Source: a virus
Lineage: Duplodnaviria > Caudoviricetes
DNA length: 60,502 nt
Strand: one strand, 5' to 3'
Virus record (IMG/VR): IMGVR_UViG_3300013137_001181
Location: 1 to 60,502 of that record
Position numbers and translations under genes: made by a program. Positions 22,701-59,787 of the stretch are shown piece after piece. Under the pieces are notes generated by a model. That model did no database searches. It was given only the letters and a program-made list of their open reading frames with translations, and was not told the DNA's origin. Numbering within the stretch: position 1 is the first letter of the stretch; every line of letters starts with the position of its first letter.

Positions 22701-22703
22701 CAA

Positions 22704-39344: not shown

Positions 39345-39886
39345 AAAATCTTGTTATAGCAGCACATCCGGATGATGAGGTGTTGGGTTGTGGGGGCTCG
39401 ATTCATAAGTTTTCAAGTAAGGAGTCGAGCGTTGTCTATATTGTTAGTAAAGGTAGAAGTGATAAGTTAGATCAGCGATTTGATACTCTTTCGCTTCGTA
39501 CGTTTATCGAGGCCATAGAGTCTCGAATCAAAAGAGATAAGCCAGATAGAATTTTTACACATCACCTTGATGATATGAATAAGGATCATAGAATAATTGC
39601 CGAGGCTACGCTTGTCGCTACTCGCGGATTAAACATAGAGGTTCTTGGTTATGAGATTTTTTCTGCAAGCGGAAGTTTCGATTTCAAACCTGATACATAC
39701 ATAGAGTTAACACGGGAAGACGTTATGCATAAGATAAGCGAGATGAACAGGCTCTATGCTCATGAAATGAGAGAGTATCCGCACGCTCGCTCAGAAGAAG
39801 GAATAATAATTCTTGCCAAATATAGAGGAATGCAGTATAGTCTTAAGTATGCAGAAGCATTTAAAACATTACGAAGAGTCCTATGA
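39341..39886 (+). CDS. PIG-L/LmbE family deacetylase
   Basis: AAHPDDEVLGCGG, THH..D...DH, AEAF. Confidence 0.88.
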   Translation: MKNLVIAAHPDDEVLGCGGSIHKFSSKESSVVYIVSKGRSDKLDQRFDTLSLRTFIEAIESRIKRDKPDRIFTHHLDDMNKDHRIIAEATLVATRGLNIEVLGYEIFSASGSFDFKPDTYIELTREDVMHKISEMNRLYAHEMREYPHARSEEGIIILAKYRGMQYSLKYAEAFKTLRRVL

Positions 39887-40935: not shown

Positions 40936-41902
40936 GAGCGTTTTGTTTGTAGTAAATCTTTATTGGGAGCTTCATTGGCTTTACAATGTGATAAAGGCAG
41001 TTGATGGCGTTGCCTTTGTTGAGAACTCAGATGTAAAGAAAATGTGTGATTATTTTGGCGTACGCACAACAAATGATTCTAGCTCATATAAGACAGCCAT
41101 AGTGACAAACAGTCATCTTGGAGCAAAAAGAACTGCAGAGCTGTTCTTCTCTCAAGGAAAAAAGGTCATAGAGCTTCAACACGCGTGGGATCCTGCTCTT
41201 CGTTTGAAAGATGTCTTTTGGAATTATTCTACCAACAGATTTTCCTATCTGTTGGTTGGCTCTACGCAGGACTATGATTGGCTTTCATCGAAATATGGCA
41301 AGGACAGAGTGTTTTTGACAGGAATACCGAAACTTGATGATCTTTATACTGTTAAGAATAGCAAAGAGTCGTTAAGACCGATTCATGATGAGTTTAAGCT
41401 TGGAAGGTTTTATCTGTCTATGGCGCCCACTGATGCGATAAGTCTAAGTATTTATATGGATTATGAAGACAATCTTGAGCCCATGTCTCCTATTCCTGTA
41501 GTGTTTAAGGTTCATCCTGGTACTGATTTTGAGAAGACCAAGCAGGCAGACATACAACATGGCAATGTAAATAGAGTGCTTATTGAGGATAATATGTATG
41601 ATCTGTTCAAAACGTACGAGATTATGAAGGAGTCCTCTGGCGTGGTATGTCTTGAGTCATTCATGTCTGTCGAGGCGTCTTTGCTTGGCAAACCAGTTAT
41701 ATTTCATGGATATGGAAGTATTCCGAATGATTTCTATGGTAGAGATGAGAATGTCAATCAGAAGATGAGGGCACCATATGAGATGTCCTCTACACTAAAT
41801 GATCCAAGATTTACTGATAAGCAAAAGGAAATTGCCAGTTATTATTTGTTCGATGGCAAGAACACAGAGAGAACTGTTAATAAATTAAAGGAGCTTATAT
41901 GA
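40922..41902 (+). CDS. GT-B fold transferase, candidate CMP-nonulosonate transferase
   Basis: ELQHA, TGIPKLD, FKVHP, S...VEASLLGKPVI, motifs of TagF/KpsS/sialyltransferase-like GT-B proteins. Confidence 0.6.
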   Translation: MEEFKSVLFVVNLYWELHWLYNVIKAVDGVAFVENSDVKKMCDYFGVRTTNDSSSYKTAIVTNSHLGAKRTAELFFSQGKKVIELQHAWDPALRLKDVFWNYSTNRFSYLLVGSTQDYDWLSSKYGKDRVFLTGIPKLDDLYTVKNSKESLRPIHDEFKLGRFYLSMAPTDAISLSIYMDYEDNLEPMSPIPVVFKVHPGTDFEKTKQADIQHGNVNRVLIEDNMYDLFKTYEIMKESSGVVCLESFMSVEASLLGKPVIFHGYGSIPNDFYGRDENVNQKMRAPYEMSSTLNDPRFTDKQKEIASYYLFDGKNTERTVNKLKELI

Positions 41903-42336
41903 TATTGCTTGAAAAACTTACCGAATCTACTTGTCAATTAATGAGAAAGTGGAGAAATCATAATAGAGTTTTTTTTGTTGATAGGCGTATTATTACGCAT
42001 AATGAGCAAGAGAAATGGTTCAAGAAGTATTTGTCTAATGAGAGACTTTGGCTTTTTATAGTATATTTACGAGAAATTCCTATTGGTTCAATTGGTTTTT
42101 CGATTGTAGACAAAGATACGGCCCAAGTTGAACTTCTTATGCTTGGAGATAAAGAGCGCGCAGAAAAAGGATATATGACTGAGGCACTTCAGAAGATGTT
42201 GACAATGTTTTCGTTTAAAAAATGGCAACTTTATGTGTTGAAAGAAAATAAAATTGCTAAGAAGTTTTATGAGAAAAATGGATTTGCTGTGGACAAAGAA
42301 GAAGATGGGTGTTATATTATGATTAAGTGTATTTGA
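41899..42336 (+). CDS. GNAT N-acetyltransferase (PseH-like)
   Basis: WRN...IT..EQ..WF, KGY, VLKENKIAKKFYEKNGF. Confidence 0.88.
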   Translation: MILLEKLTESTCQLMRKWRNHNRVFFVDRRIITHNEQEKWFKKYLSNERLWLFIVYLREIPIGSIGFSIVDKDTAQVELLMLGDKERAEKGYMTEALQKMLTMFSFKKWQLYVLKENKIAKKFYEKNGFAVDKEEDGCYIMIKCI

Positions 42337-42358
42337 ATTACTAATTTGATATGAATAT

Positions 42359-43195
42359 ATGAATAAAATGCTTATTGTTGTTCCTGTTTACGCTTCTTAC
42401 GATCTTCACATAGAGTTTACTCAAAAGACGCTTGACTCAATAGCTAATGCTTCTCATATAAATCATGAATACGATGTAATGATAGTGAGTAGCTTTTGTA
42501 AGCCAATGTATAAAGAAACATTAAAAAGCATGGCTAAAAACTGTGTTTTTAATGAGAAAAATGGTGTTTCTATAGCATGGAATACTGGTATCAGATATGG
42601 TGTTGAGAACAAATATGACTATATTATGATTATCAATAATGATTTGGTGTTTCATCCTCTTGCATTGGATAACATAGTTAAGTTTGCGCAAGAACATAAG
42701 GAGTTTGATTATTGGTCTTGTGGAGAGTGGAAAGGAGACAATAATGTCGAAGAGCGTACTGCAATAAACAATTATCTAAAAGATGTTCCTGTCGGAGAAG
42801 GATTTGATGAACATCCTCACTTCTCTAGCTTCATGATTACGCCTTCTCTTGTGGAAAAACTAAAAGAAAAGGAGAAATTAACAAAAGAACCATATCCAGG
42901 ATTATTCGATGAGACTTTTGCTCCTGCATATTTTGAGGATAATGACTTTCATCAGCGTCTGCTTGTTAATGGATTTAGAGCGTCAAAAACTGCTACCGCA
43001 CTATTTTATCATTATGGTTCTCGTTCTATAGGAGTAGATAACGATCTGTTTATTTCAAATAGAAAAACATATGAGATTAATCGAACATACTTTATGAGGA
43101 AGTGGGGATATGATCCTCATAGTAAAGTTATAGAGAATGACGATTCTATTCGTTATAAATTTATTAAACCTTTTGAAAATGAAAGAACAAAATAA
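42359..43195 (+). CDS. glycosyltransferase family 2
   Basis: AWNTG, INNDL, FDE.F.PAYFEDND, HYGS. Confidence 0.88.
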   Translation: MNKMLIVVPVYASYDLHIEFTQKTLDSIANASHINHEYDVMIVSSFCKPMYKETLKSMAKNCVFNEKNGVSIAWNTGIRYGVENKYDYIMIINNDLVFHPLALDNIVKFAQEHKEFDYWSCGEWKGDNNVEERTAINNYLKDVPVGEGFDEHPHFSSFMITPSLVEKLKEKEKLTKEPYPGLFDETFAPAYFEDNDFHQRLLVNGFRASKTATALFYHYGSRSIGVDNDLFISNRKTYEINRTYFMRKWGYDPHSKVIENDDSIRYKFIKPFENERTK

Positions 43196-44615
43196 GAAAA
43201 TAAAGGTGTTGGTTTGGGGCGACAGTCCTGCCTCTGCCACTGGTTTTGCTACTGTTATTCGTGGTGTATTTAATGAGCTTGCCAAGACAGGCAAATACGA
43301 TATTGATATTATTGGAATAAATGACACCGGTGGCTGGAAGGATCCAGAGAAGTTTCCTTATCGTATTTATCCTGCTCGTTCAAGCATTGAGGAAGGTGTG
43401 GATTATCACGGAAGACACAGGCTTATTAATGCAATGACAGGAAGAGAGCCTGAAATAAAGGCGCCCTGGGATCTTCTGTTTGTGCTTAATGATACATTTA
43501 TTCTTGAATTTCCAGTCGTTGGAGATCAAGGAATAAGTCAAATCATAGCAGACTTACAGAAACAGAGTATTGAAAAGCTACCGGTTGAATATTTCTTTAA
43601 GACAATTGTATATTGTCCAATAGACTCACCTGTTAAAGGTAATTGGATAGCTAATGGCGTTGCGCCATTTAACTATGTTGTCGCATATACCAAATATGGA
43701 AAACGACAAATAGAAAAAGCGAATAGTCTGCTTATTGATTCATCAGATGTGGGCGATAGAACGAAGGTTATCTATCATGGCGTGAATCTTGATACTTACA
43801 AGACCATAGAGGATAAAGAAATAATTAAAGATTTTAGAAGTAAATTCTTCAGAGGTTTGGTACAGGACCACACCCTTCTTGTCACCTCTGTTGCAAGAAA
43901 TCAGATGCGAAAGGATATTCCGAGAACATTGCAGATATTTAAAGAGTTTCAGAAGAGAAGACCAGACTCGTTTCTTTATCTTCATTGTCAGGAAACAGAT
44001 GCGTGGGGCTCTCTTCGAGAGTATGCAAAACTGTTTAATCTAGAGTTCGGTAAGGATTGGGGTGTTCCAAAGAGCTTTCATGCAAACTTTGGCTATAGTG
44101 CAGACACCTTGAACAAGATTTATAATGCTTCTGATTGTATTTTAAGTACCACGCATGGAGAGGGTTGGGGTTTCTACAACACAGAAGGATTTGCCACAAA
44201 GACTATTGTTGTTGCTCCAAATAACACGGTTCATCCAGAGCTTTTTAATTACGATGCTGATGAGGACATAAGCGACATGAATTCATTGAAAGAGCTTCGT
44301 GGCGTGCCTGTGAAGTGTGGTAGCACTCTTTCTGAATGGGTTACTTATGGACCAGCCGACCTTGAAAGATCAAGGCCGCTTGTTAACGTTGAGGACGCAG
44401 TAAAGAAGCTTGTTTGGGTTTATGACAATCCAGAGAAAGTCGCGGAGATTGAAGAGCGCGCCTATAAGTGGGTTCAGCAGTTTACATGGCAAGACATCTC
44501 ACGACAATGGGACGAGCTGTTCATGCAGGCATATGCAGATCTTGAGAAGCAAAGACAAGAGGCTTTGATAAAGATTGCTAACGAGCAAAAAGGAATGCCT
44601 AAGTCAAAAAAATAA
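43179..44615 (+). CDS. glycosyltransferase family 4 (GT-B)
   Basis: TGFA, IYHGV, RNQ.RK, YNASD...T.GEGWG...E. Confidence 0.88.
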   Translation: MKEQNKKIKVLVWGDSPASATGFATVIRGVFNELAKTGKYDIDIIGINDTGGWKDPEKFPYRIYPARSSIEEGVDYHGRHRLINAMTGREPEIKAPWDLLFVLNDTFILEFPVVGDQGISQIIADLQKQSIEKLPVEYFFKTIVYCPIDSPVKGNWIANGVAPFNYVVAYTKYGKRQIEKANSLLIDSSDVGDRTKVIYHGVNLDTYKTIEDKEIIKDFRSKFFRGLVQDHTLLVTSVARNQMRKDIPRTLQIFKEFQKRRPDSFLYLHCQETDAWGSLREYAKLFNLEFGKDWGVPKSFHANFGYSADTLNKIYNASDCILSTTHGEGWGFYNTEGFATKTIVVAPNNTVHPELFNYDADEDISDMNSLKELRGVPVKCGSTLSEWVTYGPADLERSRPLVNVEDAVKKLVWVYDNPEKVAEIEERAYKWVQQFTWQDISRQWDELFMQAYADLEKQRQEALIKIANEQKGMPKSKK

Positions 44616-44635: not shown

Positions 44636-45196
44636 ATGGCTACAAGAAAGTATGATTGGGTTAAGCTAAAACAGGAGTGGATGCTAGGAGACGACCTCTC
44701 TGTTAATGCTTTTATTAAGAGAAAGAATATCACTGCACCAAAAGATTATCTTGTTGGTTGGGCTGGTGAGAAAGAGGAATATAAGAAAAAGATGATGGAG
44801 AGGTCTCTTGCTGAGGTTGCGAAGCAGGAAGTGGAGGATATTACCAAAGTAAGAGAAAGACAGGCAAGATTAGCTAAGTTTCTTCAACTCAAAGGCGCAG
44901 AGAAGCTTAAGAATATGGATATTGAAACAGTTGAAGATGCAAGAAAGCTTGTTGTGTCAGGTCTTCAGGAAGAACGAAGAGCGCTTGGAATGGAAGGAGC
45001 TGGCGCTACACCTCATAACACGTTCAATCAGATAAATATTGGTCCAAAATTAAATATTGATAAATTACTTGATACTTTAGACTATGAAGGAATTCTCAAC
45101 CTTATTGCCGACCTTAAAAGAGAGCGAGCTAGAAGGTCTATACAGCCATCTACTGCTCAAGGCGCAGGAGAAATTCAAGAAGGAGAGGTTGTCTGA
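44636..45196 (+). CDS. putative terminase small subunit
   Basis: KYDW..LK.E N-terminus, helical, directly upstream of TerL. Confidence 0.65.
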   Translation: MATRKYDWVKLKQEWMLGDDLSVNAFIKRKNITAPKDYLVGWAGEKEEYKKKMMERSLAEVAKQEVEDITKVRERQARLAKFLQLKGAEKLKNMDIETVEDARKLVVSGLQEERRALGMEGAGATPHNTFNQINIGPKLNIDKLLDTLDYEGILNLIADLKRERARRSIQPSTAQGAGEIQEGEVV

Positions 45197-46796
45197 TTAT
45201 TTCTCTTGGGTAAAGGCCGTCTGGCTAACCGCTCGTGGAAAACCTTTGCGATTTGATAATCGCAAGTACTTGGAGCAGATATACATGGATCAGTCTCCAA
45301 ATATTGTCATTACCAAGTCTGCTCAGATGGGTATTTCAGAGCGACTTATCTCAGAGGCTGTTTGGCTCTGTGATCAGCGCAATGTTGTTGCGCTCTATAC
45401 CTTTCCTGCACAAACACAGCTTCAGGATTTTGTTCAGGCTCGCATAGATCCCGTTCTCAATGCTTCAGAATATCTTCGTTCTCGTTCTTCAGGACAAGAG
45501 GCAGGCGATAGAGGACAAAGACTAATGAAGATAGGCTTGAAGCGCATAGGTAATGGATTTCTTTATCTTCGTGGAAGCACTAATGAAAAACAAATAATTA
45601 CAATCGATGCAGACTGTATTTTTCTTGATGAGCGTGATAGATTCTCAGAAGATAGTGTTCCATATATTGAAAAGCGTCTTCTTGCTTCGTCTATGAAGTG
45701 GCAGCGTGCAGCTTCAACACCTACTTTTCCAATGAAAGGTATTCATGCTGTTTATATGGAGTCAGACCAGAAAGAATGGCAGGTAGAATGTAAGGCGTGT
45801 GGTCTATGGCAGGAGATTGATTTCTTTAAGAATATAGATTTTGAACGAAAGATAGCGATGTGTAGTTCGTGTAAACAGGAGATAGATAGATTTGCTGATG
45901 GTAAATGGGTGGCAAAAAATCCTGAGTCAAAGATTTCTGGATATAGAGTTAACGGATTATACAATCCGATGTCAACGATTCCTGACATACTTAAGAAGTA
46001 TGAACAAGCAAACACTAGTGGATTTTCAGCAATACAACAGTTTTTTAATCAGGACCTTGGATTACCATATGAGGCTTCAGGACAGCGTTTAACAGCACAG
46101 GAACTTGAGAACTGTAAGGGTATTTATCTTTATCCCGTTAACACAACGGTCGACTGTTATGCCGGTGCTGATGTGGGTGTCAAGTATATACATATGGTTG
46201 TTGTCCACAAGGCTGGCGTAGATAAGTATAAAGTAATATGGGCAGGAACAGTAAAGAATTTCACAGGACCGTATAGTTCGATAGAACAGGTAATGGAAAA
46301 GTATAATATTAAGACACTTGTCATTGATAAAAAGCCAGAAACATCAAAGGTAAAAGAGCTTATAGAGAAATATCCAAAGAGAGTGTTTGCGGCTACCTAT
46401 CCTTCCATGCAGTTTTCCGTCACGGAATTTATGCTGTGGGATGACATAGATTTTGAAGTTCGTCTTGACAGAACTATATCCTTGGACTACACTATTAGTG
46501 ATATACAGAATCGTAAGATTGAGTTTCCTAGAAATATAGAAAGTGTGGAAGGATTCTTTGATCAATTGATGTCGTCAATCAGGGTCACTGAGAAGAATCC
46601 TAAAACAGGAGTAGAAAATTCACGTTGGGTAGAAAAAGGTGACGACCACTATCTCCACGCGTTGAATTATGCACGGGCAGCTCAAACAAGAGGAGCCACA
46701 GGCAAAGCTCTTCTAGATTATTTAAGGAAACCTGAACAAGGTTTCACGCCAAGTCTAGTCCATTGGCTTAGAGTTAATGGACAGAAGTTAGAATAA
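45084..46796 (+). CDS. terminase large subunit (lambda GpA-like family)
   Basis: KSAQMGISE, LDERD, ASTPT, CxxC pairs, FFNQDLG.PY, GADVG, DHYLHA. Confidence 0.9.
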   Translation: MKEFSTLLPTLKESELEGLYSHLLLKAQEKFKKERLSDYFSWVKAVWLTARGKPLRFDNRKYLEQIYMDQSPNIVITKSAQMGISERLISEAVWLCDQRNVVALYTFPAQTQLQDFVQARIDPVLNASEYLRSRSSGQEAGDRGQRLMKIGLKRIGNGFLYLRGSTNEKQIITIDADCIFLDERDRFSEDSVPYIEKRLLASSMKWQRAASTPTFPMKGIHAVYMESDQKEWQVECKACGLWQEIDFFKNIDFERKIAMCSSCKQEIDRFADGKWVAKNPESKISGYRVNGLYNPMSTIPDILKKYEQANTSGFSAIQQFFNQDLGLPYEASGQRLTAQELENCKGIYLYPVNTTVDCYAGADVGVKYIHMVVVHKAGVDKYKVIWAGTVKNFTGPYSSIEQVMEKYNIKTLVIDKKPETSKVKELIEKYPKRVFAATYPSMQFSVTEFMLWDDIDFEVRLDRTISLDYTISDIQNRKIEFPRNIESVEGFFDQLMSSIRVTEKNPKTGVENSRWVEKGDDHYLHALNYARAAQTRGATGKALLDYLRKPEQGFTPSLVHWLRVNGQKLE

Positions 46797-46800
46797 ACAT

Positions 46801-48633
46801 ATGGCAATATGGTCAGACATGCTTAAACGAGTCATTCAGCCAATACTTGATGACTCTAACCGAGCGTTAACACAAGAAAACGCAGCGCTCACAAATAAGA
46901 TTAATGATCTGGAAAAGGCGGTATTTGTTTCAGCAATACCGATGGGTGGTTTTTCTCCAATGATAAATCCTGCGTCTGGAAAAGTATTTCCACAACGACT
47001 GAACTTTCAAATACTACGCGATTTTTCATCATATTATCCAATCGCTCGCGCATGTATTAACTATCGTAAGAGACAAATCACACAGCTTGATTGGTCTGTA
47101 ACGCCTATCGAAGTAGAGCTTAATCCTGATAAAAAGAAAAAATTAAAGGAAAAAGGAAAAGAAGTTAAGATGATGCTTGAATATCCTCTTGGTGACAAGA
47201 CGATGACATTTAGAGATTTTATTACTCGCATACTTGAAGACCTGCTTGTTCTTGACGCTCTTGCCATTTATAGAAGAAAAAATAGAGTTGGTGGAATTTA
47301 TGGGTATCAGCCCATAGATGCCTCAACCATTCAACTCATGGTATATGAGGATGGAACAACACCAGCACCTCCCGACCCAGCATATGTTCAAACTATTCTT
47401 GGAAGAAAAACAGCTGAGTTAACAACAGATGAACTTATCTATCGCTCGATGAACGGAAGAACGAATACGCCATATGGCATGTCTCCGATTGAAACGCTCA
47501 TTATTACAATAACAACAGCACTTAAACTTTCGACCTATAATCTTGGATATCTTACAGAAGGCAACACTCCTGAAGGATTTGTTGAGCTTCCTAAGGACAT
47601 AGCAGGAAGCCCAGATCAACTAAGACAATGGCAAGAAGCATGGGATGCAATGTTTTCTGGAGATCCTCGTTATCAGCGAAAGTTGAAGTTTCTTCCAGAA
47701 GGAATGAAGCTTCATCCGTTCAAAAAGCCAGATGAAATGCAATTTGAGCGTTTTGAGAAGTGGCTGTTACAAAACGCCTGTTCTGTACTTGAAGTTGCTC
47801 CTCAGGCTATTGGATTTCAGTTTGAGCGTGGAAAAGGCGCAACTGAGTCTGAATGGGAGATTGGTAAGGAACGCGGATTGTTTCCAACAGCGAATATTTT
47901 GAAAGAAATTCTTGATCAAATAATTCAGCATGATCTTGGTTATACGGATCTTGAGTTTGTATGGACAAATATCAATCCTACAAATCAGGCAGATGAGGCA
48001 AAGGTCTTTGATACTCTTGTTAGAACAGGAGCTGTCTCTGTTGATGAGTGGAGGCTTGGTGAAGGTCTAGAGCCCATTGGTCTTCCAAACTATATAATGA
48101 GTCCTGTCGGTCCTATTCTTGTAAAGGATTTGCTTGAACAGTCTGAGAGAGGATTCAACACAACACAGCCTTTTAATCCTAGTGGTCAGCCGAATCCTCC
48201 AGTAAAGGCGAGTGCAACCTATAAGGATATAAAACAGCCGAAAAAAGATACGCAGAACACAGGCGACAACGCTTTTCAAGACAAGAAGCCAGATCAGGCT
48301 CAGTCTGATGAATCTAAAAAGATTGCCTCAACCATAGGCCAAAGCGCTTCTCGCGCAGTTGTTGTTGACGAGCTTAAAAGATGGAAGAAAGCGGCCATAA
48401 ACGACATGAAGCTTGGTCGTTCATACAGAGACTTTAAAACAGATGTTATTGATATACGAACCCAAAGACTTATTAAGAGTGGTCTTTCTACCGTACAAGC
48501 ACGAGAAGAGCTTGACCAGCTGTTTGATCCGTTTATCAGTCAAGAGAACCAGATGATAACGGCAATGTTGGATTTATATGACAATGTAAATAATATTATA
48601 GGAAAGACAAATGGAAAAAGACCAACTGCTTAA
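46801..48633 (+). CDS. portal protein
   Basis: Follows TerL; EDLLVLDA, YGMSPIE, DMQF-like, P..IG, VDEWR..GLEP. Confidence 0.9.
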   Translation: MAIWSDMLKRVIQPILDDSNRALTQENAALTNKINDLEKAVFVSAIPMGGFSPMINPASGKVFPQRLNFQILRDFSSYYPIARACINYRKRQITQLDWSVTPIEVELNPDKKKKLKEKGKEVKMMLEYPLGDKTMTFRDFITRILEDLLVLDALAIYRRKNRVGGIYGYQPIDASTIQLMVYEDGTTPAPPDPAYVQTILGRKTAELTTDELIYRSMNGRTNTPYGMSPIETLIITITTALKLSTYNLGYLTEGNTPEGFVELPKDIAGSPDQLRQWQEAWDAMFSGDPRYQRKLKFLPEGMKLHPFKKPDEMQFERFEKWLLQNACSVLEVAPQAIGFQFERGKGATESEWEIGKERGLFPTANILKEILDQIIQHDLGYTDLEFVWTNINPTNQADEAKVFDTLVRTGAVSVDEWRLGEGLEPIGLPNYIMSPVGPILVKDLLEQSERGFNTTQPFNPSGQPNPPVKASATYKDIKQPKKDTQNTGDNAFQDKKPDQAQSDESKKIASTIGQSASRAVVVDELKRWKKAAINDMKLGRSYRDFKTDVIDIRTQRLIKSGLSTVQAREELDQLFDPFISQENQMITAMLDLYDNVNNIIGKTNGKRPTA

Positions 48634-49429
48634 TGTAAGACAGTCGTTGGAGACTTTTTTTTATCGAATACGATTTAACATTGGGTTGAATCACGCATTA
48701 GAGTCCGGTGTGTTTAAATCGTTCAGGAGTGAACTGAAAAAGTCTCTTCGTAATCAGATACTCTATTTTGCGAAGATAGAGAAGGTTAATTCTATTATAG
48801 GTCTTCGTAAGGCTGTAAAAGAGCTTACTGATCAAGATTTGCTTATTAATCTTGGCAAGATGTGGATTCCTATTTTTGACATCTTAAGTCAAGAAGATGC
48901 AAAAAAATTTCTAATTTGGTCTGCGAATGAAGGAGGCCAGATAGCTGTAAACAAACTTGATCCGTCTGTTGAGTTTAGACTAAAGAATGAAAAGATTGTT
49001 AGTATGATAGAACAGCGTGCGATTGATTTTTCTAAAATTATAGATTATACAACGCAAAGCTGGATAGCTCGAACGGTAGAGGAAGGAATAAGCATGGGTA
49101 TGAATTCTATAGACATAGCAAAAACACTTCGTGATCAATCGACTAATGTTTCTTACTTTAGATCAGACACCATTGCCGAATATGAGTTGGCTCTTCAAAT
49201 AGGAGAGATGCAAAACGAAGTGTTCAAGAGAAGTGGTGTAACGCATCATCGGTGGATAACCACGCGTGATGAGCGTACTTGCTTGGAGTGTGCTTCAAAT
49301 GAGGAGGCTGGCGAGGTTGAAATAGGTGATGAATTTCCAAGTGGTGTGATATATACACCAGGACATATTTCATGCCGATGCTTTATTGCTCCAGTCTCTT
49401 TGCATAAAGAAATATGGACAGGCAACTAG
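48611..49429 (+). CDS. head morphogenesis protein (Mu gpF/SPP1 gp7-like)
   Basis: W.T..DERTC..C, PGHISCRC. Confidence 0.85.
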   Translation: MEKDQLLNVRQSLETFFYRIRFNIGLNHALESGVFKSFRSELKKSLRNQILYFAKIEKVNSIIGLRKAVKELTDQDLLINLGKMWIPIFDILSQEDAKKFLIWSANEGGQIAVNKLDPSVEFRLKNEKIVSMIEQRAIDFSKIIDYTTQSWIARTVEEGISMGMNSIDIAKTLRDQSTNVSYFRSDTIAEYELALQIGEMQNEVFKRSGVTHHRWITTRDERTCLECASNEEAGEVEIGDEFPSGVIYTPGHISCRCFIAPVSLHKEIWTGN

Positions 49430-49870: not shown

Positions 49871-49896
49871 GCCACACATTAGGTGTGGTTTTTTTT
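49871..49896 (+). terminator. intrinsic terminator in leader
   Basis: GCCACAC-ATTAG-GTGTGGT plus T run. Confidence 0.75.
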
Positions 49897-49902
49897 GTAA
49901 AC

Positions 49903-50319
49903 ATGGACATCATAGAGATAACACCAAACATGCTTTATCAGAGTTCGAGAATAGAAAGCACTGGTGATTATCAGAGAATTCTTGACAATGGCGTGAAGGC
50001 AATAGTGGACATAGAAGGTTCTATTAATCCTATTGATGCTAAGATAGAAAAATATCTTTATTGGGCGTTTAAAAAAGGAGATGTTCCTTCATTAAAGAAT
50101 TTAGATATTGTTGCTTCATTTGCTATCTCGTGCATAAAAGACGATAGCCCAGTCATTATTCATGGCGGAGACGGCATAAATAGAATTAGTCTTATTTCTG
50201 CATACATATATAGACTTATGGAAAAGAAGAGTGGACAACAGTCAATAGATTATATTAGGCTTAAAAAGTTTGATTCTCTGAACAATCAGGATTATGTCTC
50301 AATGTTAAAAATTCTTTAA
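49903..50319 (+). CDS. dual-specificity phosphatase-like protein lacking the catalytic Cys
   Basis: EITPNMLYQS, GVKAIVD, VIIHGGDGINRIS versus HCxxGxxRS. Confidence 0.7.
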   Translation: MDIIEITPNMLYQSSRIESTGDYQRILDNGVKAIVDIEGSINPIDAKIEKYLYWAFKKGDVPSLKNLDIVASFAISCIKDDSPVIIHGGDGINRISLISAYIYRLMEKKSGQQSIDYIRLKKFDSLNNQDYVSMLKIL

Positions 50320-50906: not shown

Positions 50907-50955
50907 TTGTGTTCGGATATTATAAATTGCCTTAATAAAAGGGGGGTGATTAAAT

Positions 50956-51695
50956 ATGGCAGCCACATTTTCTGTAGCTCAAAACTACGGTACAGGAACA
51001 GGTTCTGTTTCACTTCTTGGTGCAACTGGATCGCTTTGGTATTTTAAGCAAGCAACAGATCAAGGTACGCTGAACTATAATGCAGCTGGTTCTAACGTCC
51101 CAGCAGGTCAAAACTCGTTCGGTGTTCATCTGAGACCTTACTTCTCTACCACGGCAACCAATACGTTCTCAAACATTCGTTTTTACCAGTCAACAACTTG
51201 GACATCAACGACTTATGGAGCGGTTGGTACCAGCGCGGCAGGTTATACGCAGTCAACTGCGTCTAGCACTGCAGCCACTGATGGAGGAGCTTCAAACTCA
51301 GGTGTTCCAACAGGTTCTGCGACCAATGCAGCTATTGCTCTTGGCACGCTTACTCTTGGAAATGCGTCAGGTTATGGTCCAACGTTCCTTCGTGTTCAGT
51401 TGACCACAAACTCAAGCGCACCAGCAGGAGATACACCTTTCGGAGGATCAATTTTGTGGGTCCTCTTTAAATCTTTTCTAATCAATGGGGAACATCTTAT
51501 TAAAAGATTACCCTCAACAAGCAGATTAATAATCGTGCAGTTGCAGAGACTAACTGAAGAGACTATTCTAAAACGAATAGATGTGATAGTCCGATCTCTA
51601 TGGGAACATAGAGAGTTAGGCAGAAATGACCTAACCAATGCTATATTTGCAGCATTGCAACAATTTAAGTCACTTGGGTCTATGATGAATCGTAG
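50956..51695 (+). CDS. Ser/Thr/Gly-rich putative virion protein, spliced form join(50956..51448,51670..51695), 172 aa; unspliced read-through ends at 51735 (259 aa)
   Basis: GGGGGGTGA RBS; removing the intron yields ...AGDTPFGGFTWVYDES*. Confidence 0.8.
51449..51669 (+). ncRNA. group I self-splicing intron (221 nt, no homing endonuclease)
   Basis: P1 GAGGAT/GTCCTC with U-G at the 5' splice site; P10 GTGG/TCAC; core GCAGAGACTAA and GATAGTCC (P7); P9-like hairpins CTCTATG-GGAA-CATAGAG and GTTAGG-CAGAAATGA-CCTAAC; terminal G. Confidence 0.85.
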
Positions 51696-51772
51696 ACAAT
51701 TTGCAGGTTTTACATGGGTATATAATGGGTCCTGAGCGACAAGACTATGGATCCTGAGTTTTGTCTAAAACA

Positions 51773-51818
51773 AAAAGACGGCGGACATGGTTCCAGAAGC
51801 CATTCCGCTGTTTTTTTT
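51773..51818 (+). terminator. probable terminator after the intron-containing gene
   Basis: ACGGCGGA-CATGG...CCAT-TCCGCTGT hairpin plus T run. Confidence 0.6.
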
Positions 51819-51822
51819 GGTC

Positions 51823-51851
51823 TTGACATCACCAAAACAAGTGACTATAAT
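51823..51851 (+). promoter_or_regulatory. sigma70-type promoter
   Basis: TTGACA-17 nt-TATAAT. Confidence 0.8.
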
Positions 51852-51879
51852 TTAGTAAGATATAAATTTTTATCGATAT

Positions 51880-52494
51880 ATGGATAAAAAGAGAGAAGAA
51901 AAGATGCCTCCAGGAACATCTTCTATCGGCTTCGTTAATAATAAAGATGGCTCAGTTCCAGACATGTCAAAAGGACAAGGAACGGCAGAAACAGTTGTAA
52001 ATCTTCATGATCCAGCCACGACAATCAAAGGAATCAAGCTAAACATCGGTTCTGGTGTTGATTGCAAGGATGGATATGTAAACGTAGATAAATATGATTC
52101 AAGCGCAGACATCAAAGCAGACATATGTAACCTTCCATTTCATGATAATTCTGTTGCAGTCGTAACCTGTATGGAAGTTCTTGAGCATCTAGGTATTAAC
52201 GAGATTGGTACGGCTCTCAAAGAGCTTCACCGTGTTATGAAACCAGGTGCATCTCTTCACGCTACTGTGCCTGATATAGTTGATGCTTGTAAAAAGCTTG
52301 TTGAGGATCCTGAAAACGATTGGACTCTTGCGGTAATCTATGGCAATCAGACACACGATGGACAATATCACAAGAATGGATTTACGCCAAAACGCATTTT
52401 CAAGCTGTTAGGATATGCGGGATTTAGGATTATAAAGACGGCGTATATAGAAAACCTCAATGTTAGAAACATCTACATTGAGGCCGTAAAATAA
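51880..52494 (+). CDS. class I SAM-dependent methyltransferase
   Basis: LNIGSG, GYVNVD, LPF.DNSV, EVLEH, RVMKPG, VPD. Confidence 0.88.
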   Translation: MDKKREEKMPPGTSSIGFVNNKDGSVPDMSKGQGTAETVVNLHDPATTIKGIKLNIGSGVDCKDGYVNVDKYDSSADIKADICNLPFHDNSVAVVTCMEVLEHLGINEIGTALKELHRVMKPGASLHATVPDIVDACKKLVEDPENDWTLAVIYGNQTHDGQYHKNGFTPKRIFKLLGYAGFRIIKTAYIENLNVRNIYIEAVK

Positions 52495-52515
52495 TTTATT
52501 ATTAACCAACTAACT

Positions 52516-54177
52516 ATGATGAATGGTACTTTTAGGTCATACTTCGGAGCAATTTGTGTTCCTATTCTCGACAAAGGAGATGGAACTATTTCAAATGTTA
52601 CGCACGACTGGTCAAACGCAATGGCAGGTCTTGGTGGTGGCCTTGCAGTTACCGTTATGCGACTTGAGATTCGCAATCATAGAGTAGATATTGCGAAAGA
52701 ACGTCTTGCTGAACTTGCTATATCAAATGGCTGTCAGTGGGCTTTGTTTGTTGATGATGATGTTATTCCTCCTGGTAATGGACTTTTCAAGATGATTAAG
52801 CTTTGGAGAAGTGATCCTAAATATAAAATCATTTCAGGTGTTTATTACTCAAAGAGTGATCCAGCTCTTCCGCTTGTGTTTAGAGGAAATCTGCAAGGCA
52901 GTTATTGGGACTGGACAGTCCACGATTTAATCAAGGCTGATGGTGCAGGCGCAGGCTTTCTCTTTGTTGACCTCGAGATGCTCAAGAAACTTCCTAAACC
53001 ATGGTTCTCATGTGACTATGTGTTTGAAGATCCTCGTTCAATGTATGATATTCAAAAATGGAATAAGATGGATGAGCTTGGTAATGAGCTTTTAAAAGGT
53101 AAAGAAGCAGACACAAAGACCGTTGTGAGAATGGAAGGCGAACTTAAAGAGCTTGGAGATAAAATTCAACGAGTACAAAGAGGAGAATTCGATCCTAATC
53201 TCTTGAAGAATGTTCATAACGACGCAGGTACAACAGAGGACTTATATTTCTTTAAGAAGGCCAAAGAACATGGTTATGACTTATGGGTCGACTGTTCAAT
53301 CCAGTGTATGCACCAAGACAAGCGAACGGGTCGTGTCTGGGGCATTTCGCCTGATGATGCACAGGCTCAGCCTCGTTGGTCGAAGAGAATGACTCCTGGT
53401 GAGATGGTGGTGCTTGATATTGGCGCAGGAGAAGGCGGATATCATATTCCAGAAGGTAATCCTATCAGAATAGATCTTGATGAGCGTACAAAGCCAGATA
53501 TCGTGGCTGATGCACGACAGATTCCTCTTGAGGACTGTTATGCCGACATGGTCTTTTCAAGTCATTTGCTTGAGCATTTTTCTTTCAGAGAGAGTGTCTC
53601 AGTACTTCGCGAGTGGGTCAGACTTCTAAAGGTTGATGGAAAGCTTGTGATTATCGTGCCTAATTTGAAGTGGGCTTCTAAAGTCATCATGGAGCCTGAG
53701 AAGCATAATACTCAGTATCATGCTGAGCGAGCTATGTATATGTACTTTTCACAACAAGACGGAACGCTTGTTGATGCGTACGAGGACACACATAAAGCAG
53801 GATTTACGCCTGAGTCACTTGCTGGATTGCTTTCACGAGTGGGAGGTCTTACAGATATTGAGGTACACACTACAGAAGGTGTATACTCAGGTTGGGATGC
53901 TCCTGAGAATCTTGTTAAGGATGGAACTGGTTATAATATTATCGCTATTGCAAAGAAGGCCAAGCACAATTCTGCCATAAGCTTAAAGTTGCCAATTGGA
54001 TTACAGGAAGAGGCTAAAAAGTTTGTTGGAGAGAAGGCAAGGCAGTATAATAAAAAAAATAATGTGGAGAAAGAAGCTGAAAAGATTTATAATGAAGCTG
54101 AACTGCTTGTTAAGAAGGCAAAAAAAGAAGGTCAACGCGTTGTGACAAGTATAAAGAAATTAAAAGTTAAGAAGTAA
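52516..54177 (+). CDS. GT-A (family 2-like) glycosyltransferase fused to class I methyltransferase
   Basis: LFVDDDV, GAGFL, PWF, TEDLYF (GT-A); LDIGAG, SSHLLEH, VPN (MTase). Confidence 0.85.
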   Translation: MMNGTFRSYFGAICVPILDKGDGTISNVTHDWSNAMAGLGGGLAVTVMRLEIRNHRVDIAKERLAELAISNGCQWALFVDDDVIPPGNGLFKMIKLWRSDPKYKIISGVYYSKSDPALPLVFRGNLQGSYWDWTVHDLIKADGAGAGFLFVDLEMLKKLPKPWFSCDYVFEDPRSMYDIQKWNKMDELGNELLKGKEADTKTVVRMEGELKELGDKIQRVQRGEFDPNLLKNVHNDAGTTEDLYFFKKAKEHGYDLWVDCSIQCMHQDKRTGRVWGISPDDAQAQPRWSKRMTPGEMVVLDIGAGEGGYHIPEGNPIRIDLDERTKPDIVADARQIPLEDCYADMVFSSHLLEHFSFRESVSVLREWVRLLKVDGKLVIIVPNLKWASKVIMEPEKHNTQYHAERAMYMYFSQQDGTLVDAYEDTHKAGFTPESLAGLLSRVGGLTDIEVHTTEGVYSGWDAPENLVKDGTGYNIIAIAKKAKHNSAISLKLPIGLQEEAKKFVGEKARQYNKKNNVEKEAEKIYNEAELLVKKAKKEGQRVVTSIKKLKVKK

Positions 54178-54768: not shown

Positions 54769-57700
54769 ATGGCGCAAATATATTGGGTAGGAGGAAGCGG
54801 AAATTGGACAGACTCAGAAAACCACTGGGCAGATTCTTCTGGTACAGCAGGAACAGCTGGTGTGCCTACTAATGGCGATGAGGTATTTCTTAGTTGTGTA
54901 GACTCAGACGGTTGGACCATTACACTTGATGCAGATGTTACTGTTCTTGGATTAAATCTAAACACATCATACGATTTTACGTTTGCAATGGGTTCCTACA
55001 ACGTAACCGTAGGAAATGGTGGCGATATGACGTCTACGAGCCCTGGTTTTTATACAGAATCAAGTGTCAGCTTAACAAGCACAGGTGGAACATTCACAAT
55101 CGAAGGTGGCGATGGTTATGCTTCAACATTTCAAGTATATAGCTCTTTTCCAAGAGACGTACAGGTAAACTGTTCTGGGTGGGAGGTTCGTTTTGGAGGA
55201 GATATAGGAACTCATGGAATTACTGTCAGTTTATTTGATGGTACTTTTAACTTTATTTCAGATACAACATGTGGGATATTTACCTGCACAGAAACTTATG
55301 GAATAATAGATCTGGGAAGTTTTTCAATTACCGCTAGAAGATTTGTATTAGCACAAGATGTCAATATATATTCTTCATCATCTAACAGAGTTTATCTTAC
55401 TGAAAATAGCGGTGGAGACGCACTACTTTATACTAAAACATCGCAAAGTTTAAGTGTCATGGGTAACTGGTATATACAAGGAAATGCACATTTTCATCCA
55501 GGTGTTGATGCATATTTTCAAAATGAATTACATATAAATTCGACCATTGGAACTGGAGAGGTTCAATTGTTTGATGGATTTGAGGTAGATAAATTTTATG
55601 TAGATTCACATCCTAAGACAGTAAAATTTGAAGGAGGAAAAACTTATACTATAGATACATCATTTAATGTAAGTGGGACTGCTGGAAATCTTATCACACT
55701 TAATAATATATCAGGAACGACAAAGCACATTCTTTCAAAATCAGATGGCACAATAACTTGCGATTATCTTGATATTTCAAATTCAAATGCAACTGGTGGG
55801 GCTACTTGGAAGGCTGGAGCTAATTCAAATAATACATCAAATAATTCAGGCTGGGTATTCACTGAAACGAAAACAATATCTGCAAAAGCACGTATTAAAA
55901 ATATAAATCGTTATTGGGTTGGGGGAAGTGGCAATTGGAGCGATGCAGCGAACCACTGGGCAACGTCAAGTGGTGGTTCTAGTGGTGCTGATGTTCCTAC
56001 TTCTGAAGATGATGTTTTTATTGATGAAAACTCTGGATTTGGAGCAGGAGGAACAATTACGGTTGACGTTGAAGGTGTAGGACATGATTTAACCTGTACG
56101 TCTGGGGACAGCTACACAATTGATAATCAGTACTCGCTGGGTTTTACTGGTTCAATAACTTTGGAGTCAGATATTACTGCAACAGGATATGGATGGACAA
56201 TGGCTCCCGATACTGTAAACGAAACATTGACTTCTGCTGGTGTTATTCTTCCTACGCTGATGATTCAGGCGCTAGTGGCGACTAATAAGGTGACTCTTCA
56301 AGATAACTTAGAACTGGATAATACAATTGGTTTTCTTGTTTTTTACAATGGTATTTTTGATGCAAACGACCATAATATAAAAGCAGCATCGTATGTGTGT
56401 ATAGGAGAGACTGGGACTTATGATTCTGAAATAATCATGGGTTCTGGAACATGGGAAGCAATGATAGCAGATGATGAAGAAAATGGTATTTTTCCTTGGA
56501 TTATGGAGGATATGGATAGTGGAATTACCATTACGCCAGAAACATCAACGATTAAGATAACGGATGCAAGTAGCACGCAAAAAACGTTTCTTGGAGGTGG
56601 AAAAACGTACAATAACGTTTGGTTTACTGGTGCAGGAACAGGTGCATTCCGTATCTATGATGGCAATACGTTTAATGATTTGAAAGTAGATAATCCTCCA
56701 CATACGCTTCTTTTGCCAGCAGAGGCAACAGTAACAGTTTCTTCGTTTACTGTATCAGGTTCTTCTGGTAATCTAATCACGATTGATAGCACGGATGGGG
56801 CAACACAGAACACTTTATCAAAATCGGCAGGAACGGTGAATTGTAATTATCTTAATATCAGTAATTCAAATGCAGCAGGAGGAGCAAGTTGGCGAGCATA
56901 TACAAGTAACGGAAACACAGATGGAGGTAATAATAGTGGATGGATTTTTACTGGTGCCGATAATTCAATCAAGGCGAACATTGTTGTTACAAATCTAAAG
57001 GACGTCTCTTCTAAGGCAAATATACTTTCTTCACAAGCGAAAAACAACAATATAAAGGCGTTTATTTCTGCTCCTGGTCAGTTTGATAATGTTGTTGGAG
57101 CAGACATCCTTAAGACATCAACAAAAGGTGTTTATGTATATGTAAATATTTCTAATAATCCTCCAACGGTCGCGCTCGATTCTCCTTCTGATGCTCAGCA
57201 GGTAAACGACATTACGCCAGATTTGTTGTTCACAGGAACAGATCCGAATAGCAATACTATAGATTATGAAGTCCAGATATCTAATGACGCATATTTTGCT
57301 GACGTTTTAACCTATTACTTTGATGCTTCAGATGGTTCTATATTAGATCCAAATAGTGTATGGAATAATGAGCCCAATGCATTTGATGGTTCTACTTCAA
57401 CTGATGCGGATACGGCGACAGCTGGTTCTACAAGTTCTAATTATCTATTTGGTGAAGGAACTAATGCGCCAACCTCAGGTGGCACTATTTCGCAGGTAAG
57501 AGCAAGAATGTATTCTTATGGCAGACTTGGTGATGCGGGCATGATTTGTACAATCTATACAAACGGTCTAGGAGAGTCTCTTGGCATTGTCTATGGCACG
57601 ACAATGAATACGGTTTGGTCAAATTATACAGTTCTTTCTGCGCCCTCAGGTGGTTGGACATGGCAAAAAATAAAGAACTTAGAGGTAAAAATTTATCATT

Positions 57701-59787
57701 CTACTGGGACCTCCTCAACATTAAGAGTTTATAGAGTTGAGGTTGAAGTGACCACCTCAACGCTGATTGATGCTCTGTCTACCGATCATACTGGCTTTAG
57801 CGCAGGAGCATCGCATCCAACCGCTTCAGGCGCACAACAGACATATACAGTACAGTCTGCTCTCTCTCCTGGCCTTTATCACTGGCGCGTTAGAGGAAAG
57901 GATCCGACCGGAGGTAATACATGGGGTGCGTGGAGTGATGGCGCTCATTCTGGATATAGTGATTTTTATGTTGTTATTCTAGATGCACAGACAGAAAATT
58001 CTGCGAAAGCATATATCTCCATTTTGACCATAGCTCAAGATAACTCAGCTGTCGCAAGCATATATACCACTAACTCCTACAATCAATCAACATGTGCAAA
58101 TATAAAAACAATAAATATTTATGCGTCTTCAATGAAGACAAATATTTTGTCTTCTCTTTCAGTGACGCAAAATGTCAAGATAAACATAGTCACAACTAAC
58201 ACATATGACATTTTTACTAAAATAGACGTACTCTCATCAATCGCAAAAGGAAATTCATCAAAAACAAGCGTAACTGTTGTTAGCTCCTATCCTGTTTCTG
58301 CTGTTGTAAATTTACTTAGAGTAAGCGAGAGAAAAGATTCAAGTGTAAAGACTTTTTTAATTGTAACCAATATTTATGCCAATAATTCTAAAGCAGACAT
58401 ATACGCACAATCTGCATATGGTAACACTACAAAAACAAGCATTTATACAACAAACAGTAAAAATAATAGCGTAATAATAAATGTTGTTGGTTTCATTATT
58501 CAGGGTAATAGTTCAAAGGCAAGTATTGTCGCTGTATCTTCATATAATCAAAGTTCTATTGGCGACATTTTTTCGACTGAACTTTATTCAAACAGAGCGA
58601 CCGGAAATGTGTTAAGAAGCGGAGAGAGTGTGGCAAATCAGACAAGATCAGATATTTTAGTGGCACAAATATATGCGCAATCTGCAAAACAGAGCATAGT
58701 AACAACTTCTCAGATAAACGAGTCTTCATTGGCGAATATACTTGCGAGTATATCGAAGAACAACTCTGCTCTGGCGAGTGTGATTTTCTTTGGACAATCT
58801 GCCGTTTCATCAAAGACGAACATATTGAGAGTAAATGAGATAAAAAGTGGTCAGACAAAGTCTTCTATCTCTGTGACAAATACGAAAAACAATTCTACAA
58901 AAGCCTTCATCATCGTAACATGCGTAGATGAACAGAGTGTCAAAACTTCAATTGTAGTTAGAGCAACATCTGGGAATTTTGTGATTATAAACCTGATTGC
59001 GGAATTTGCTTATAAGCACTATGGTATAGGAAATATCTTGGCTTCTGTAAATTCACACAGTCATTCAACATCAAATATTTTTGTTGAAAACAATACAGCG
59101 AATAATTCGGTGGTTGTCAACATTGTGACGAGTAATGTTTATGGTGACAATGTGAAGATGTGTCTGTCCTCTGTTATATCTAAGGATAATCAGACGATAG
59201 TTCGCGTTATCGCGGCTGGTCAGATGTCGAATTCATTAAGCGCTAATATTCTTAATAAAAACGAGACAAAAAATGATAGCGCTAAGGCATCTATTCTTTC
59301 TGTATCTACAGGTGAGAATAGTGCAAAGGTTTCAATTGTTATCTTGAACAGTCTTGATGTATCTGTCAAAACGAGCATCTGCGCGACCTTAAAAAATGAG
59401 TTTAGTATAAAATCAAATCTTCTTGTTGAGCAATCTTCTTCTGTTGATTCAAAAGCCGATATTGTTTCTATTTTAGTGTCCGACAACTACTCTAAGACAA
59501 ATATAGTGGTTGAGAATGTCTATGAGTGCGTCTCAAAAACATATATTTATGCGCATGTTTTGGTAGACAATTACACGACAGTAGACATACTTAGGCGTGA
59601 TGAGTTGCTGTTGAATTATGTAAAGACAAATATAGTTACAAAGGATATTGGTTTTAATAATAGCTCAAAGGTGATGGTGTATAGCTACATAATATATAGA
59701 GCACGACCATTTCAGACGCGAACACCTTCTATTCATGTAGATAGAGGATTGATATATGGTAAGTTAAAGGTGATTAAACTATTGTAA
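54769..59787 (+). CDS. large repetitive virion/adhesin-like protein (1672 aa)
   Basis: Two YWVGGSGNW..NHWA..SG..GA.VPT modules, an Ig/FN3-like segment (YHWRVRG), and a C-terminal ~600 aa of S/T/N-rich S.KANI-like repeats. Confidence 0.75.
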   Translation: MAQIYWVGGSGNWTDSENHWADSSGTAGTAGVPTNGDEVFLSCVDSDGWTITLDADVTVLGLNLNTSYDFTFAMGSYNVTVGNGGDMTSTSPGFYTESSVSLTSTGGTFTIEGGDGYASTFQVYSSFPRDVQVNCSGWEVRFGGDIGTHGITVSLFDGTFNFISDTTCGIFTCTETYGIIDLGSFSITARRFVLAQDVNIYSSSSNRVYLTENSGGDALLYTKTSQSLSVMGNWYIQGNAHFHPGVDAYFQNELHINSTIGTGEVQLFDGFEVDKFYVDSHPKTVKFEGGKTYTIDTSFNVSGTAGNLITLNNISGTTKHILSKSDGTITCDYLDISNSNATGGATWKAGANSNNTSNNSGWVFTETKTISAKARIKNINRYWVGGSGNWSDAANHWATSSGGSSGADVPTSEDDVFIDENSGFGAGGTITVDVEGVGHDLTCTSGDSYTIDNQYSLGFTGSITLESDITATGYGWTMAPDTVNETLTSAGVILPTLMIQALVATNKVTLQDNLELDNTIGFLVFYNGIFDANDHNIKAASYVCIGETGTYDSEIIMGSGTWEAMIADDEENGIFPWIMEDMDSGITITPETSTIKITDASSTQKTFLGGGKTYNNVWFTGAGTGAFRIYDGNTFNDLKVDNPPHTLLLPAEATVTVSSFTVSGSSGNLITIDSTDGATQNTLSKSAGTVNCNYLNISNSNAAGGASWRAYTSNGNTDGGNNSGWIFTGADNSIKANIVVTNLKDVSSKANILSSQAKNNNIKAFISAPGQFDNVVGADILKTSTKGVYVYVNISNNPPTVALDSPSDAQQVNDITPDLLFTGTDPNSNTIDYEVQISNDAYFADVLTYYFDASDGSILDPNSVWNNEPNAFDGSTSTDADTATAGSTSSNYLFGEGTNAPTSGGTISQVRARMYSYGRLGDAGMICTIYTNGLGESLGIVYGTTMNTVWSNYTVLSAPSGGWTWQKIKNLEVKIYHSTGTSSTLRVYRVEVEVTTSTLIDALSTDHTGFSAGASHPTASGAQQTYTVQSALSPGLYHWRVRGKDPTGGNTWGAWSDGAHSGYSDFYVVILDAQTENSAKAYISILTIAQDNSAVASIYTTNSYNQSTCANIKTINIYASSMKTNILSSLSVTQNVKINIVTTNTYDIFTKIDVLSSIAKGNSSKTSVTVVSSYPVSAVVNLLRVSERKDSSVKTFLIVTNIYANNSKADIYAQSAYGNTTKTSIYTTNSKNNSVIINVVGFIIQGNSSKASIVAVSSYNQSSIGDIFSTELYSNRATGNVLRSGESVANQTRSDILVAQIYAQSAKQSIVTTSQINESSLANILASISKNNSALASVIFFGQSAVSSKTNILRVNEIKSGQTKSSISVTNTKNNSTKAFIIVTCVDEQSVKTSIVVRATSGNFVIINLIAEFAYKHYGIGNILASVNSHSHSTSNIFVENNTANNSVVVNIVTSNVYGDNVKMCLSSVISKDNQTIVRVIAAGQMSNSLSANILNKNETKNDSAKASILSVSTGENSAKVSIVILNSLDVSVKTSICATLKNEFSIKSNLLVEQSSSVDSKADIVSILVSDNYSKTNIVVENVYECVSKTYIYAHVLVDNYTTVDILRRDELLLNYVKTNIVTKDIGFNNSSKVMVYSYIIYRARPFQTRTPSIHVDRGLIYGKLKVIKLL

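Follow-up and report, generated by a model that had tools for sequence, protein, structure and literature searches.

Phage group I introns that carry no open reading frame (ORF), among them the T4 td, nrdB and sunY cores and those of Bacillus and Staphylococcus phages, have helices P1 to P10, a U·G pair at the 5' splice site, a terminal G and the strands GACUA and UAGUC in P7, and they interrupt conserved genes at conserved places. According to reviews, an in-frame stop codon right after the 5' junction keeps ribosomes out of most group I introns of bacteria and phages (PMC3073962, PMC3984707), and in some introns an open frame continuous with exon 1 runs across the ribozyme core and encodes endonucleases or maturases (PMC3073962, PMC8393795). 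Collaborative, or trans, homing is documented for F-CphI and psbA of cyanophage S-PM2 and for MobE and the nrdB intron of T4 (PMC3984707, PMC2790892), and one-sided homing with illegitimate joins at microhomology for the T4 td intron (PMC2988022, summarising Parker, Belisle and Belfort 1999). The locus studied here belongs to the virus record IMGVR_UViG_3300013137_001181 (Caudoviricetes), the entire 60,502 nt of which were analysed and are referred to below as the window. A 221-nt ORF-less group I intron with all the features listed above for such phage introns lies on the plus strand at positions 51449-51669, eight codons short of the end of a small gene that starts at 50956; after the short exon 2 comes the same gene end once more, in decayed form, at 51700-51735. 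On balance, this second terminus is probably the end of the resident gene, displaced when the intron entered by one-sided homing and left behind as a scar.

Exon 1 (50956-51448, plus strand) comprises 164 codons and the first base of codon 165 of a gene for a predicted 172-amino acid (aa) beta-sandwich protein, and exon 2 (51670-51695, plus strand) supplies the last two bases of codon 165, the residues TWVYDES and the stop codon TAG at 51693-51695. Joining T51448 to T51670 gives the 172-aa protein ending in ...GDTPFGGFTWVYDES* at that stop codon, and the C-terminus predicted in this way (...GGFTWVYDES) is that of the intronless homologues. Of 422 candidates from a search with exon 1, 91 proteins, the window's own included, passed E ≤ 0.001 (100% coverage). 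Fifty-eight of the other 90 are exactly 172 aa long, 68 end in DES and 77 have an end of the canonical type; one homologue, P0033 (192 aa), continues 20 residues beyond ...FTWIYDES. The unspliced ORF (50956-51735) would encode 259 aa, a form found in one of the 91 proteins, namely the window's own, and it matched no Pfam or PHROG family. The exact splice sites put forward in the preliminary description of this DNA, after 51448 and before 51670, are thus upheld, since the spliced product has the length and the DES end of its homologues.

P1, P10 and the terminal G can be read straight from the sequence. In P1, GGAGGAU (51442-51448) pairs with GUCCUC (51460-51465), U51448 and G51460 forming the wobble pair of the 5' splice site; in P10, UCAC (51670-51673) makes four pairs with GUGG (51456-51459); and the 3' tail of the intron ends in G51669. 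The predicted core consists of P3 (51472-51478/51556-51562), P4 (about 51486-51490/51511-51515), P5 (51494-51508), P6 (51521-51538), P7 (GACUA within 51545-51553 and UAGUC within 51585-51592) and P8 (51563-51580), followed by P9 (51596-51613), P9.1 (51616-51634) and P9.2 (51636-51657). A minimum free energy fold recovered P1, P3 to P6, P8, P9, P9.1 and P9.2, with a z-score of -3.2 that was equalled by none of 200 shuffled sequences.

The Rfam model RF00028 (Intron_gpI) matched positions 51439-51613 with 27.9 bits (E 3.9e-5 in a 601-nt search; the gathering score is 50), and a scan of the whole window at the gathering score did not report the intron. Introns in other alleles of the same gene scored 84.2 bits (locus L008) and 40.9 bits (L024) in the Rfam search, while the alleles at L006, L009, L015 and L030 gave no row at E ≤ 0.01 in the same search, which covered 35.8 kb. 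By nhmmer the window intron, present there in one copy, was tied to the introns of L008 and L024 at E 1e-56. Eight homologous introns of the same gene, from viral and metagenome contigs, were then aligned for an analysis of covariation. The alignment supported 36 consensus pairs, with 92.5% of the cells paired and double changes in 21 of the 36; none of 500 shuffles scored as high, and controls in which the structure was slid along the alignment were 33-43% paired. The GACUA/UAGUC strands of P7 are kept in all eight introns, four of the five pairs being invariant and the fifth being AU in five introns and GC in three. The seven relatives follow the same splice-site logic as the window intron, their P1 sequences co-varying with the exon ends, and exon 2 is conserved after every intron in a phase that is readable only once the intron has been spliced out, which argues that splicing is under selection. 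The group I intron first proposed from P1, P10, P7 and the terminal G is confirmed by the homologous alleles and the covariation, together with the sub-threshold Rfam match; as far as sequence comparison can tell, 51449-51669 is a predicted self-splicing intron and a further, unremarkable representative of a known class. Cores about 86-90% identical to it over about 50 nt occur in Alicyclobacillus phage KKP_3916 and in the Lysinibacillus phages LysYB1 and LysYB2.

A peculiarity of the intron start was noted during the alignment of the proteins. Positions 51450-51473 encode SILWVLFKS, which resembles the natural last strand FTWVYDES, and MAFFT set the FTWVYDES of the homologues onto the intron-encoded ILWVLFKS. 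The W-V of SILWVLFKS derives from the internal guide sequence, that is, from the P10 and P1 strands; a start of the same type is present in the proteins P0013 and P0045 and in none of the remaining alleles. When the intron-encoded tail (region 165-248) was used as a query, the query alone was recovered among the proteins.

The second gene end (51700-51735, plus strand) encodes FAGFTWVYNGS* in the read-through frame, with the stop codon TGA at 51733-51735, and holds an uninterrupted intron insertion site; its similarity to the gene may reach upstream to about 51691. The homologous second terminus had been recognised from the letters alone, and it is real: alleles with FAG occur among the homologues (for example P0022), its stop codon stands where that of the natural end does, and it agrees with the natural end of L017 in 30 of 36 nt, compared with 22-24 of 36 nt for seven other natural ends. 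Exon 2, the first copy, agrees with the natural end of L028 in 25 of 26 nt but with the equivalent bases of the second copy, which lie 261 nt (87 codons) further on, in 17 of 26. In the second copy N and G stand in place of D170 and E171, each of which at least 90% of 59 homologues retain. When the window and all 33 loci were scanned for the motif, a second gene end turned up in the window only, and the relatives had none, decayed or otherwise. That the second terminus might be a promoter (TTTACA...TATAAT) was considered and rejected: the spacing would be 6 nt, and the promoter scan gave only the match at 51823-51851.

That the two copies each stand near a different allele points to two allele types and not to a recent duplication in place. 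Replication slippage independent of the intron could in principle have copied the last ~40 nt, the downstream copy drifting afterwards, and the copies do lie 4 nt apart in the same orientation if the intron is ignored. However, each is far closer to another allele than the two are to one another, such divergence would not be expected of a duplication young enough for the second copy to be free of frameshifts, and no duplicated end was seen in an intronless relative, all 13 loci in question giving a single canonical end as their motif hit. An in-situ tandem duplication is accordingly quite improbable.

Since many closely related alleles coexist in metagenomes, reads of two co-occurring phage strains might also have been misjoined during assembly. 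Logan contigs from two other samples nevertheless span the intron, exon 2 and the second terminus with 0 differences (X3, 51514-51780; X4, 51424-51953), and the contig X2, likewise without a difference, extends to 51695; a further contig, X1, is a possible source of the window and was excluded from this independent support. The reads of four DNA runs contained the identical genotype alone, with no intronless or single-terminus variant. The chance that the arrangement is an assembly chimera is next to negligible.

The second copy could also serve as an alternative 3' exon, exon 1 being joined at a G in front of it (for example G51703) to give a third product, ...GGSGFTWVYNGS, an isoform that the preliminary description had considered possible. 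The heptamer ACAATTT stands before the real 3' splice site (51661-51667) as well as before the second copy (51696-51702), and ligation at G51703 would be in frame. Yet the CAGG that follows G51703 is not expected to pair with the guide GUGG at 51456-51459, with which the UCAC of the real site makes four pairs. Moreover, AACAA is a conserved motif in the 3' tails of this intron family, its recurrence here may be due to chance or be part of the junction, and nothing of the kind is found in the relatives. With no P10 predicted at G51703, the third isoform is very improbable.

The relatives show how the displaced end may have come about. Introns in this small gene, those of the relatives and of the window taken together, occupy five positions spread over 26 nt: after codon 159 (L025, and probably also P0043 and P0072, known as proteins only), after codon 164 +0 (L009, L024), +1 (the window, L006, L015) and +2 (L030), three insertion positions that are adjacent nucleotides, and after the second base of codon 168 (L008, L022, L023). 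In L013 (3557-4093), L015 (3791-4351) and L017 (1556-2107) a free-standing LAGLIDADG gene (PF00961, over the cut-off) lies behind the stop codon under its own consensus promoter. By tblastn the full gene was found in L017, L028, L012/L013/L014/L026, L015 and L024, and remnants of it beside the introns of L008, L009 and L030; nothing was found in L006. LAGLIDADG genes thus adjoin intronless and intron-bearing alleles alike, and the DNA 3' of the gene differs among the relatives. In L024 a match to the manA RNA motif (52.6 bits; gathering score 55.2) was also seen upstream of the gene, at 968-1126.

Because the downstream DNA differs, repair from an intron-bearing donor would find homology on the exon 1 side only. 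The recipient phage gene would probably have suffered a double-strand break by a free-standing LAGLIDADG endonuclease like those downstream of the gene in the relatives, and the intron would have been copied into it along with the short exon 2 and the stop codon of the donor. We infer that repair was homologous on the exon 1 side and illegitimate on the 3' side, where nothing but a diverged 26-nt exon and, beyond it, unrelated DNA would have been on offer, and that the recipient's own gene end was thereby pushed downstream of the incoming exon 2. It would now be untranslated 3' sequence of the spliced mRNA, apparently neutral and decaying.

The pathway by which the intron travelled would be collaborative or trans homing. 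As in the described cases, the relatives L015 and L024 pair an ORF-less intron with an adjoining full free-standing endonuclease gene, intronless alleles with the endonuclease occur, and remnants remain beside the introns of L008, L009 and L030. Unlike F-CphI or the HNH types, the endonuclease here is of the LAGLIDADG family, with a putative cleavage site; five insertion positions fall within 26 nt, and the window has no endonuclease gene at all. The homology of one exon, the non-homologous join opposite it and the foreign exon carried with the intron are shared with one-sided homing of T4 td, which, however, was obtained in a laboratory system, whereas here the outcome would be a natural footprint that duplicates a gene end. 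In Allomyces atp6 a mobile element with an endonuclease ORF and no ribozyme brings along a piece of the donor gene. A partial gene duplication via intron mobility has likewise been described in mitochondria of Tremella fuciformis (PMC8393795). In these cases, as here, a piece of the donor gene arrives and the resident piece stays as a duplicate, but they are organellar, and the duplication in Tremella is N-terminal.

The second unusual property of the locus is the reading frame of the intron. It had been remarked from the start that the intron lacks stop codons in the frame of exon 1, and the count bears this out, with 0 stops in 221 nt in that frame and 10 and 6 in the other two; the first stop of the read-through frame lies 285 nt past the 5' splice site, and 52 of 20000 dinucleotide shuffles were open as far. 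In the exon 1 frame each of the seven relatives has a single stop, always 15-23 nt ahead of the 3' splice site, against 7-10 and 4-8 stops in the other frames of the eight introns. Summed over all eight, the stops amount to 7 in the exon frame and to 65 and 48 in the others, and for each intron 28-136 of 20000 dinucleotide-preserving shuffles were open as far. L023, nearly identical to L022, shows the same frame behaviour, and six more alleles known as proteins (P0013, P0042, P0043, P0045, P0050, which is L025, and P0072) are open for about 68-73 codons, so that the exon frame is open for at least 59 codons in all 15 intron-bearing alleles. None of the 90 homologues had the short aberrant end that an early stop would produce; two that lack a C-terminus (152 and 114 aa) are shorter than exon 1 and look like fragments. 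The preliminary description had looked to intron-frame stops in the relatives, or to a decayed second terminus in them, as marks of a neutral scar; the first comparison came out the other way, the relatives' frame being open almost to the 3' end, and a second terminus of any kind is absent from them.

The codon phase in which a given RNA element is read varies among the introns: CAAGCAG in phase 1 in two introns and in phase 2 in four, AGAGACU (the 5' strand of P7) in phases 0, 1 and 2, and AGUCC (its 3' strand) in phase 2 in seven introns and in phase 0 in one. Frame-shifting insertions and deletions must thus have been compensated while the frame stayed open, and the openness is not merely inherited along with the RNA sequence. 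The stop-free frame, being shared by the relatives almost to the 3' end, is conserved and no mere accident of the window copy. It suggests that the family is under selection against stops in the exon 1 frame through the ribozyme core, that ribosomes do get into transcripts before splicing, and that terminating within the core would carry a cost. Polarity or decay affecting the last 26 nt, a harmful truncated protein without its last strand and a need for ribosome transit are candidate reasons. In contrast to the frames that encode endonucleases or maturases, the 57-73 intron-encoded residues here match no family; their sequence is dictated by RNA elements in varying phases, and the absence of stops alone is conserved. 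The comparison introns in L001 (KKP_3916) and L002 (LysYB1) obey the early-stop rule, the upstream coding sequences (CDSs) ending 16, 34 and 51 nt past the start of the Rfam match, whereas the frame in all 15 alleles of the present family is open for 59-73 codons or more. Literature searches, judged by titles and the beginnings of abstracts, brought up no earlier account of stop-free phage introns that seemed relevant apart from the reviews cited, which does not prove that none has been published.

The Rfam group I matches in those two phages (L001, 1501-1834 and 2298-2526; L002, 2242-2529; 70.6, 41.7 and 58.2 bits) fall in unannotated gaps between CDSs labelled as hypothetical proteins and just after the annotated CDS of the major capsid protein. 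The deposited annotations probably describe split genes.

An open intron frame that ends in a second copy of the gene end invites the idea of a fail-safe or of a second isoform, as the preliminary description had proposed beside a neutral alternative. Unspliced mRNA would be read through the intron, past exon 2 out of frame and into the old end, and the resulting 259-aa protein would have its last strand FTWVY resupplied after an 87-residue intron-encoded loop, serving either as a working substitute or as a longer variant with a use of its own. If the open frame is selected across the family, the introns are indeed entered by ribosomes. No other allele lacks the late stop, present in all seven relatives, or carries a second end, and that end is in frame. 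Exon 2 encodes a core beta-strand (predicted local distance difference test score, pLDDT, ~91 in the model described below), the recovery of which could rescue the fold, and both ends lie upstream of the likely terminator and hence on the mRNA. Against this, the most conserved C-terminal residues, D170 and E171, are replaced by N and G; the arrangement is present in one of 15 intron-bearing alleles and invariant in three other samples, without a sign of conservation; and it was the coincidence itself that drew attention to the window. We consider a fail-safe or second isoform unlikely. A bolder form of the idea, that introns of this family are built for translation, with ribosomes routinely crossing unspliced pre-mRNA and the old end of the window completing a read-through protein (a fail-safe, or a longer virion isoform set by splicing efficiency), is to be regarded as unlikely. 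An AlphaFold2 (AF2) model of the 259-aa read-through product was uninformative on the second end (pLDDT 37), its 17-row alignment having informed exon 1 only; an alignment over the full length would have introduced a bias, given where MAFFT puts the homologues' FTWVYDES.

Between the adaptive and the neutral alternative the evidence leans to the latter, on the grounds of the different allele types of the two ends, the loss of D170 and E171, the occurrence in one of 15 alleles and the LAGLIDADG genes of the relatives, which offer a mechanism. Several observations weigh against the preferred account of intron and gene end. No LAGLIDADG gene or remnant was found by tblastn in the 60.5-kb window, a record estimated to be about 59% complete, and the endonuclease step is for that reason deduced from the relatives only. 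No clean microhomology is resolvable at the junction of donor and recipient sequence (about 51691-51700). The second terminus is intact in frame, free of frameshifts and stops, with nine of 11 residues kept. The loss of the late stop and an in-frame spacing of 87 codons have a rough joint chance of a few per cent, given a late stop in seven of seven relatives and odds of one in three for the frame, and this speaks for the fail-safe. The open frame runs counter to the early-stop rule of the reviews. None of the sequencing runs listed for the sequence is an RNA run, and splicing itself is predicted. A scar of one-sided homing nevertheless seems to us the better account, and it is most likely by coincidence that the window is without the usual late stop, so that read-through would reach the old end.

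The protein encoded by the spliced gene was modelled through its intronless homologue P0002, which is 94% identical. The AF2 model, based on a 59-row alignment, is an all-beta sandwich with a pLDDT of 85, and its last strand consists of residues 164-171, the FTWVYDES that exon 2 encodes. Foldseek searches against PDB and BFVD gave nothing at E ≤ 0.001, and an ESM Atlas search returned viral hypothetical clusters only. The best VIA-align match was the PorA N-domain with Z 7.0, pilin and PapD-like sandwiches following at Z 5-6, a range that the tool calls common. A tblastn search with exon 1 against cultured phage genomes matched nothing, and GTDB gave a single match, to a metagenome-assembled genome, where it lies on a contig of 5 kb. 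From its position after the genes for the large terminase (45084-46796), the portal protein (46801-48633) and a head-morphogenesis protein (48611-49429), all upstream, the gene is plausibly a virion gene. A gene for a 144-aa dual specificity phosphatase-like protein (49885-50319; Pfam Tc-R-P, 33.5 bits; PHROG dual specificity phosphatase) sits between the head-morphogenesis gene and the intron-bearing gene.

A Shine-Dalgarno-like sequence, AAGGGGGGTGA (50939-50949, plus strand), precedes the ATG at 50956. On the 3' side of both termini a GC-rich hairpin with eight consecutive T behind it (51777-51818, plus strand) is likely the intrinsic terminator of the intron-bearing gene; both elements were read off the sequence, the hairpin having been left out by a simple terminator scan because its stem and loop exceed the limits of the scan. 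The next promoter, the consensus TTGACA-17-TATAAT at 51823-51851 (plus strand), has 12 of 12 hexamer matches and serves the following gene, a methyltransferase gene at 51880-52494 (plus strand; Pfam Methyltransf_11); the methyltransferase and glycosyltransferase genes 3' of the intron-bearing gene come after terminator and promoter. Sugar-modification genes flank the head genes on both sides (35254-44615 and 51880-54177) and comprise those for a nucleotide-sugar epimerase, an aminotransferase, two glycosyltransferases, a methyltransferase and a 553-aa fusion of glycosyltransferase and methyltransferase. These genes, and the S/T-rich loops in the 172-aa protein, hint at glycosylation of a virion protein. 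The window, which is the entire record and phage-like, is about 59% complete by the estimate of the tool used; it also contains a 1672-aa ORF (54769-59787) without Pfam or PHROG matches and a single tRNA-Thr gene (anticodon TGT, 22630-22701) at the switch from the minus-strand to the plus-strand gene block.

On the reading preferred here, the duplicated gene end would be a footprint of a kind seldom seen in nature, left in a phage by a known repair pathway, one-sided illegitimate homing, for which the literature, as summarised in the review cited, has so far offered a laboratory outcome in T4. It would show that an intron can enter a gene even though donor and recipient differ downstream. The last 26 nt of this small, highly conserved gene form a hot spot of mobile elements which, with five insertion positions and with neighbouring LAGLIDADG genes that are full, partial or absent, is a compact natural system for the study of collaborative homing and of the endonuclease life cycle. 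The most unexpected point is the family of introns kept free of stops across codon phases, which contradicts the view that an early stop protects the ribozyme. If these introns were indeed built for translation, splicing and translation would share one RNA and the fail-safe would be independent of splicing; the open-frame family renders the interplay of translation and self-splicing directly testable.

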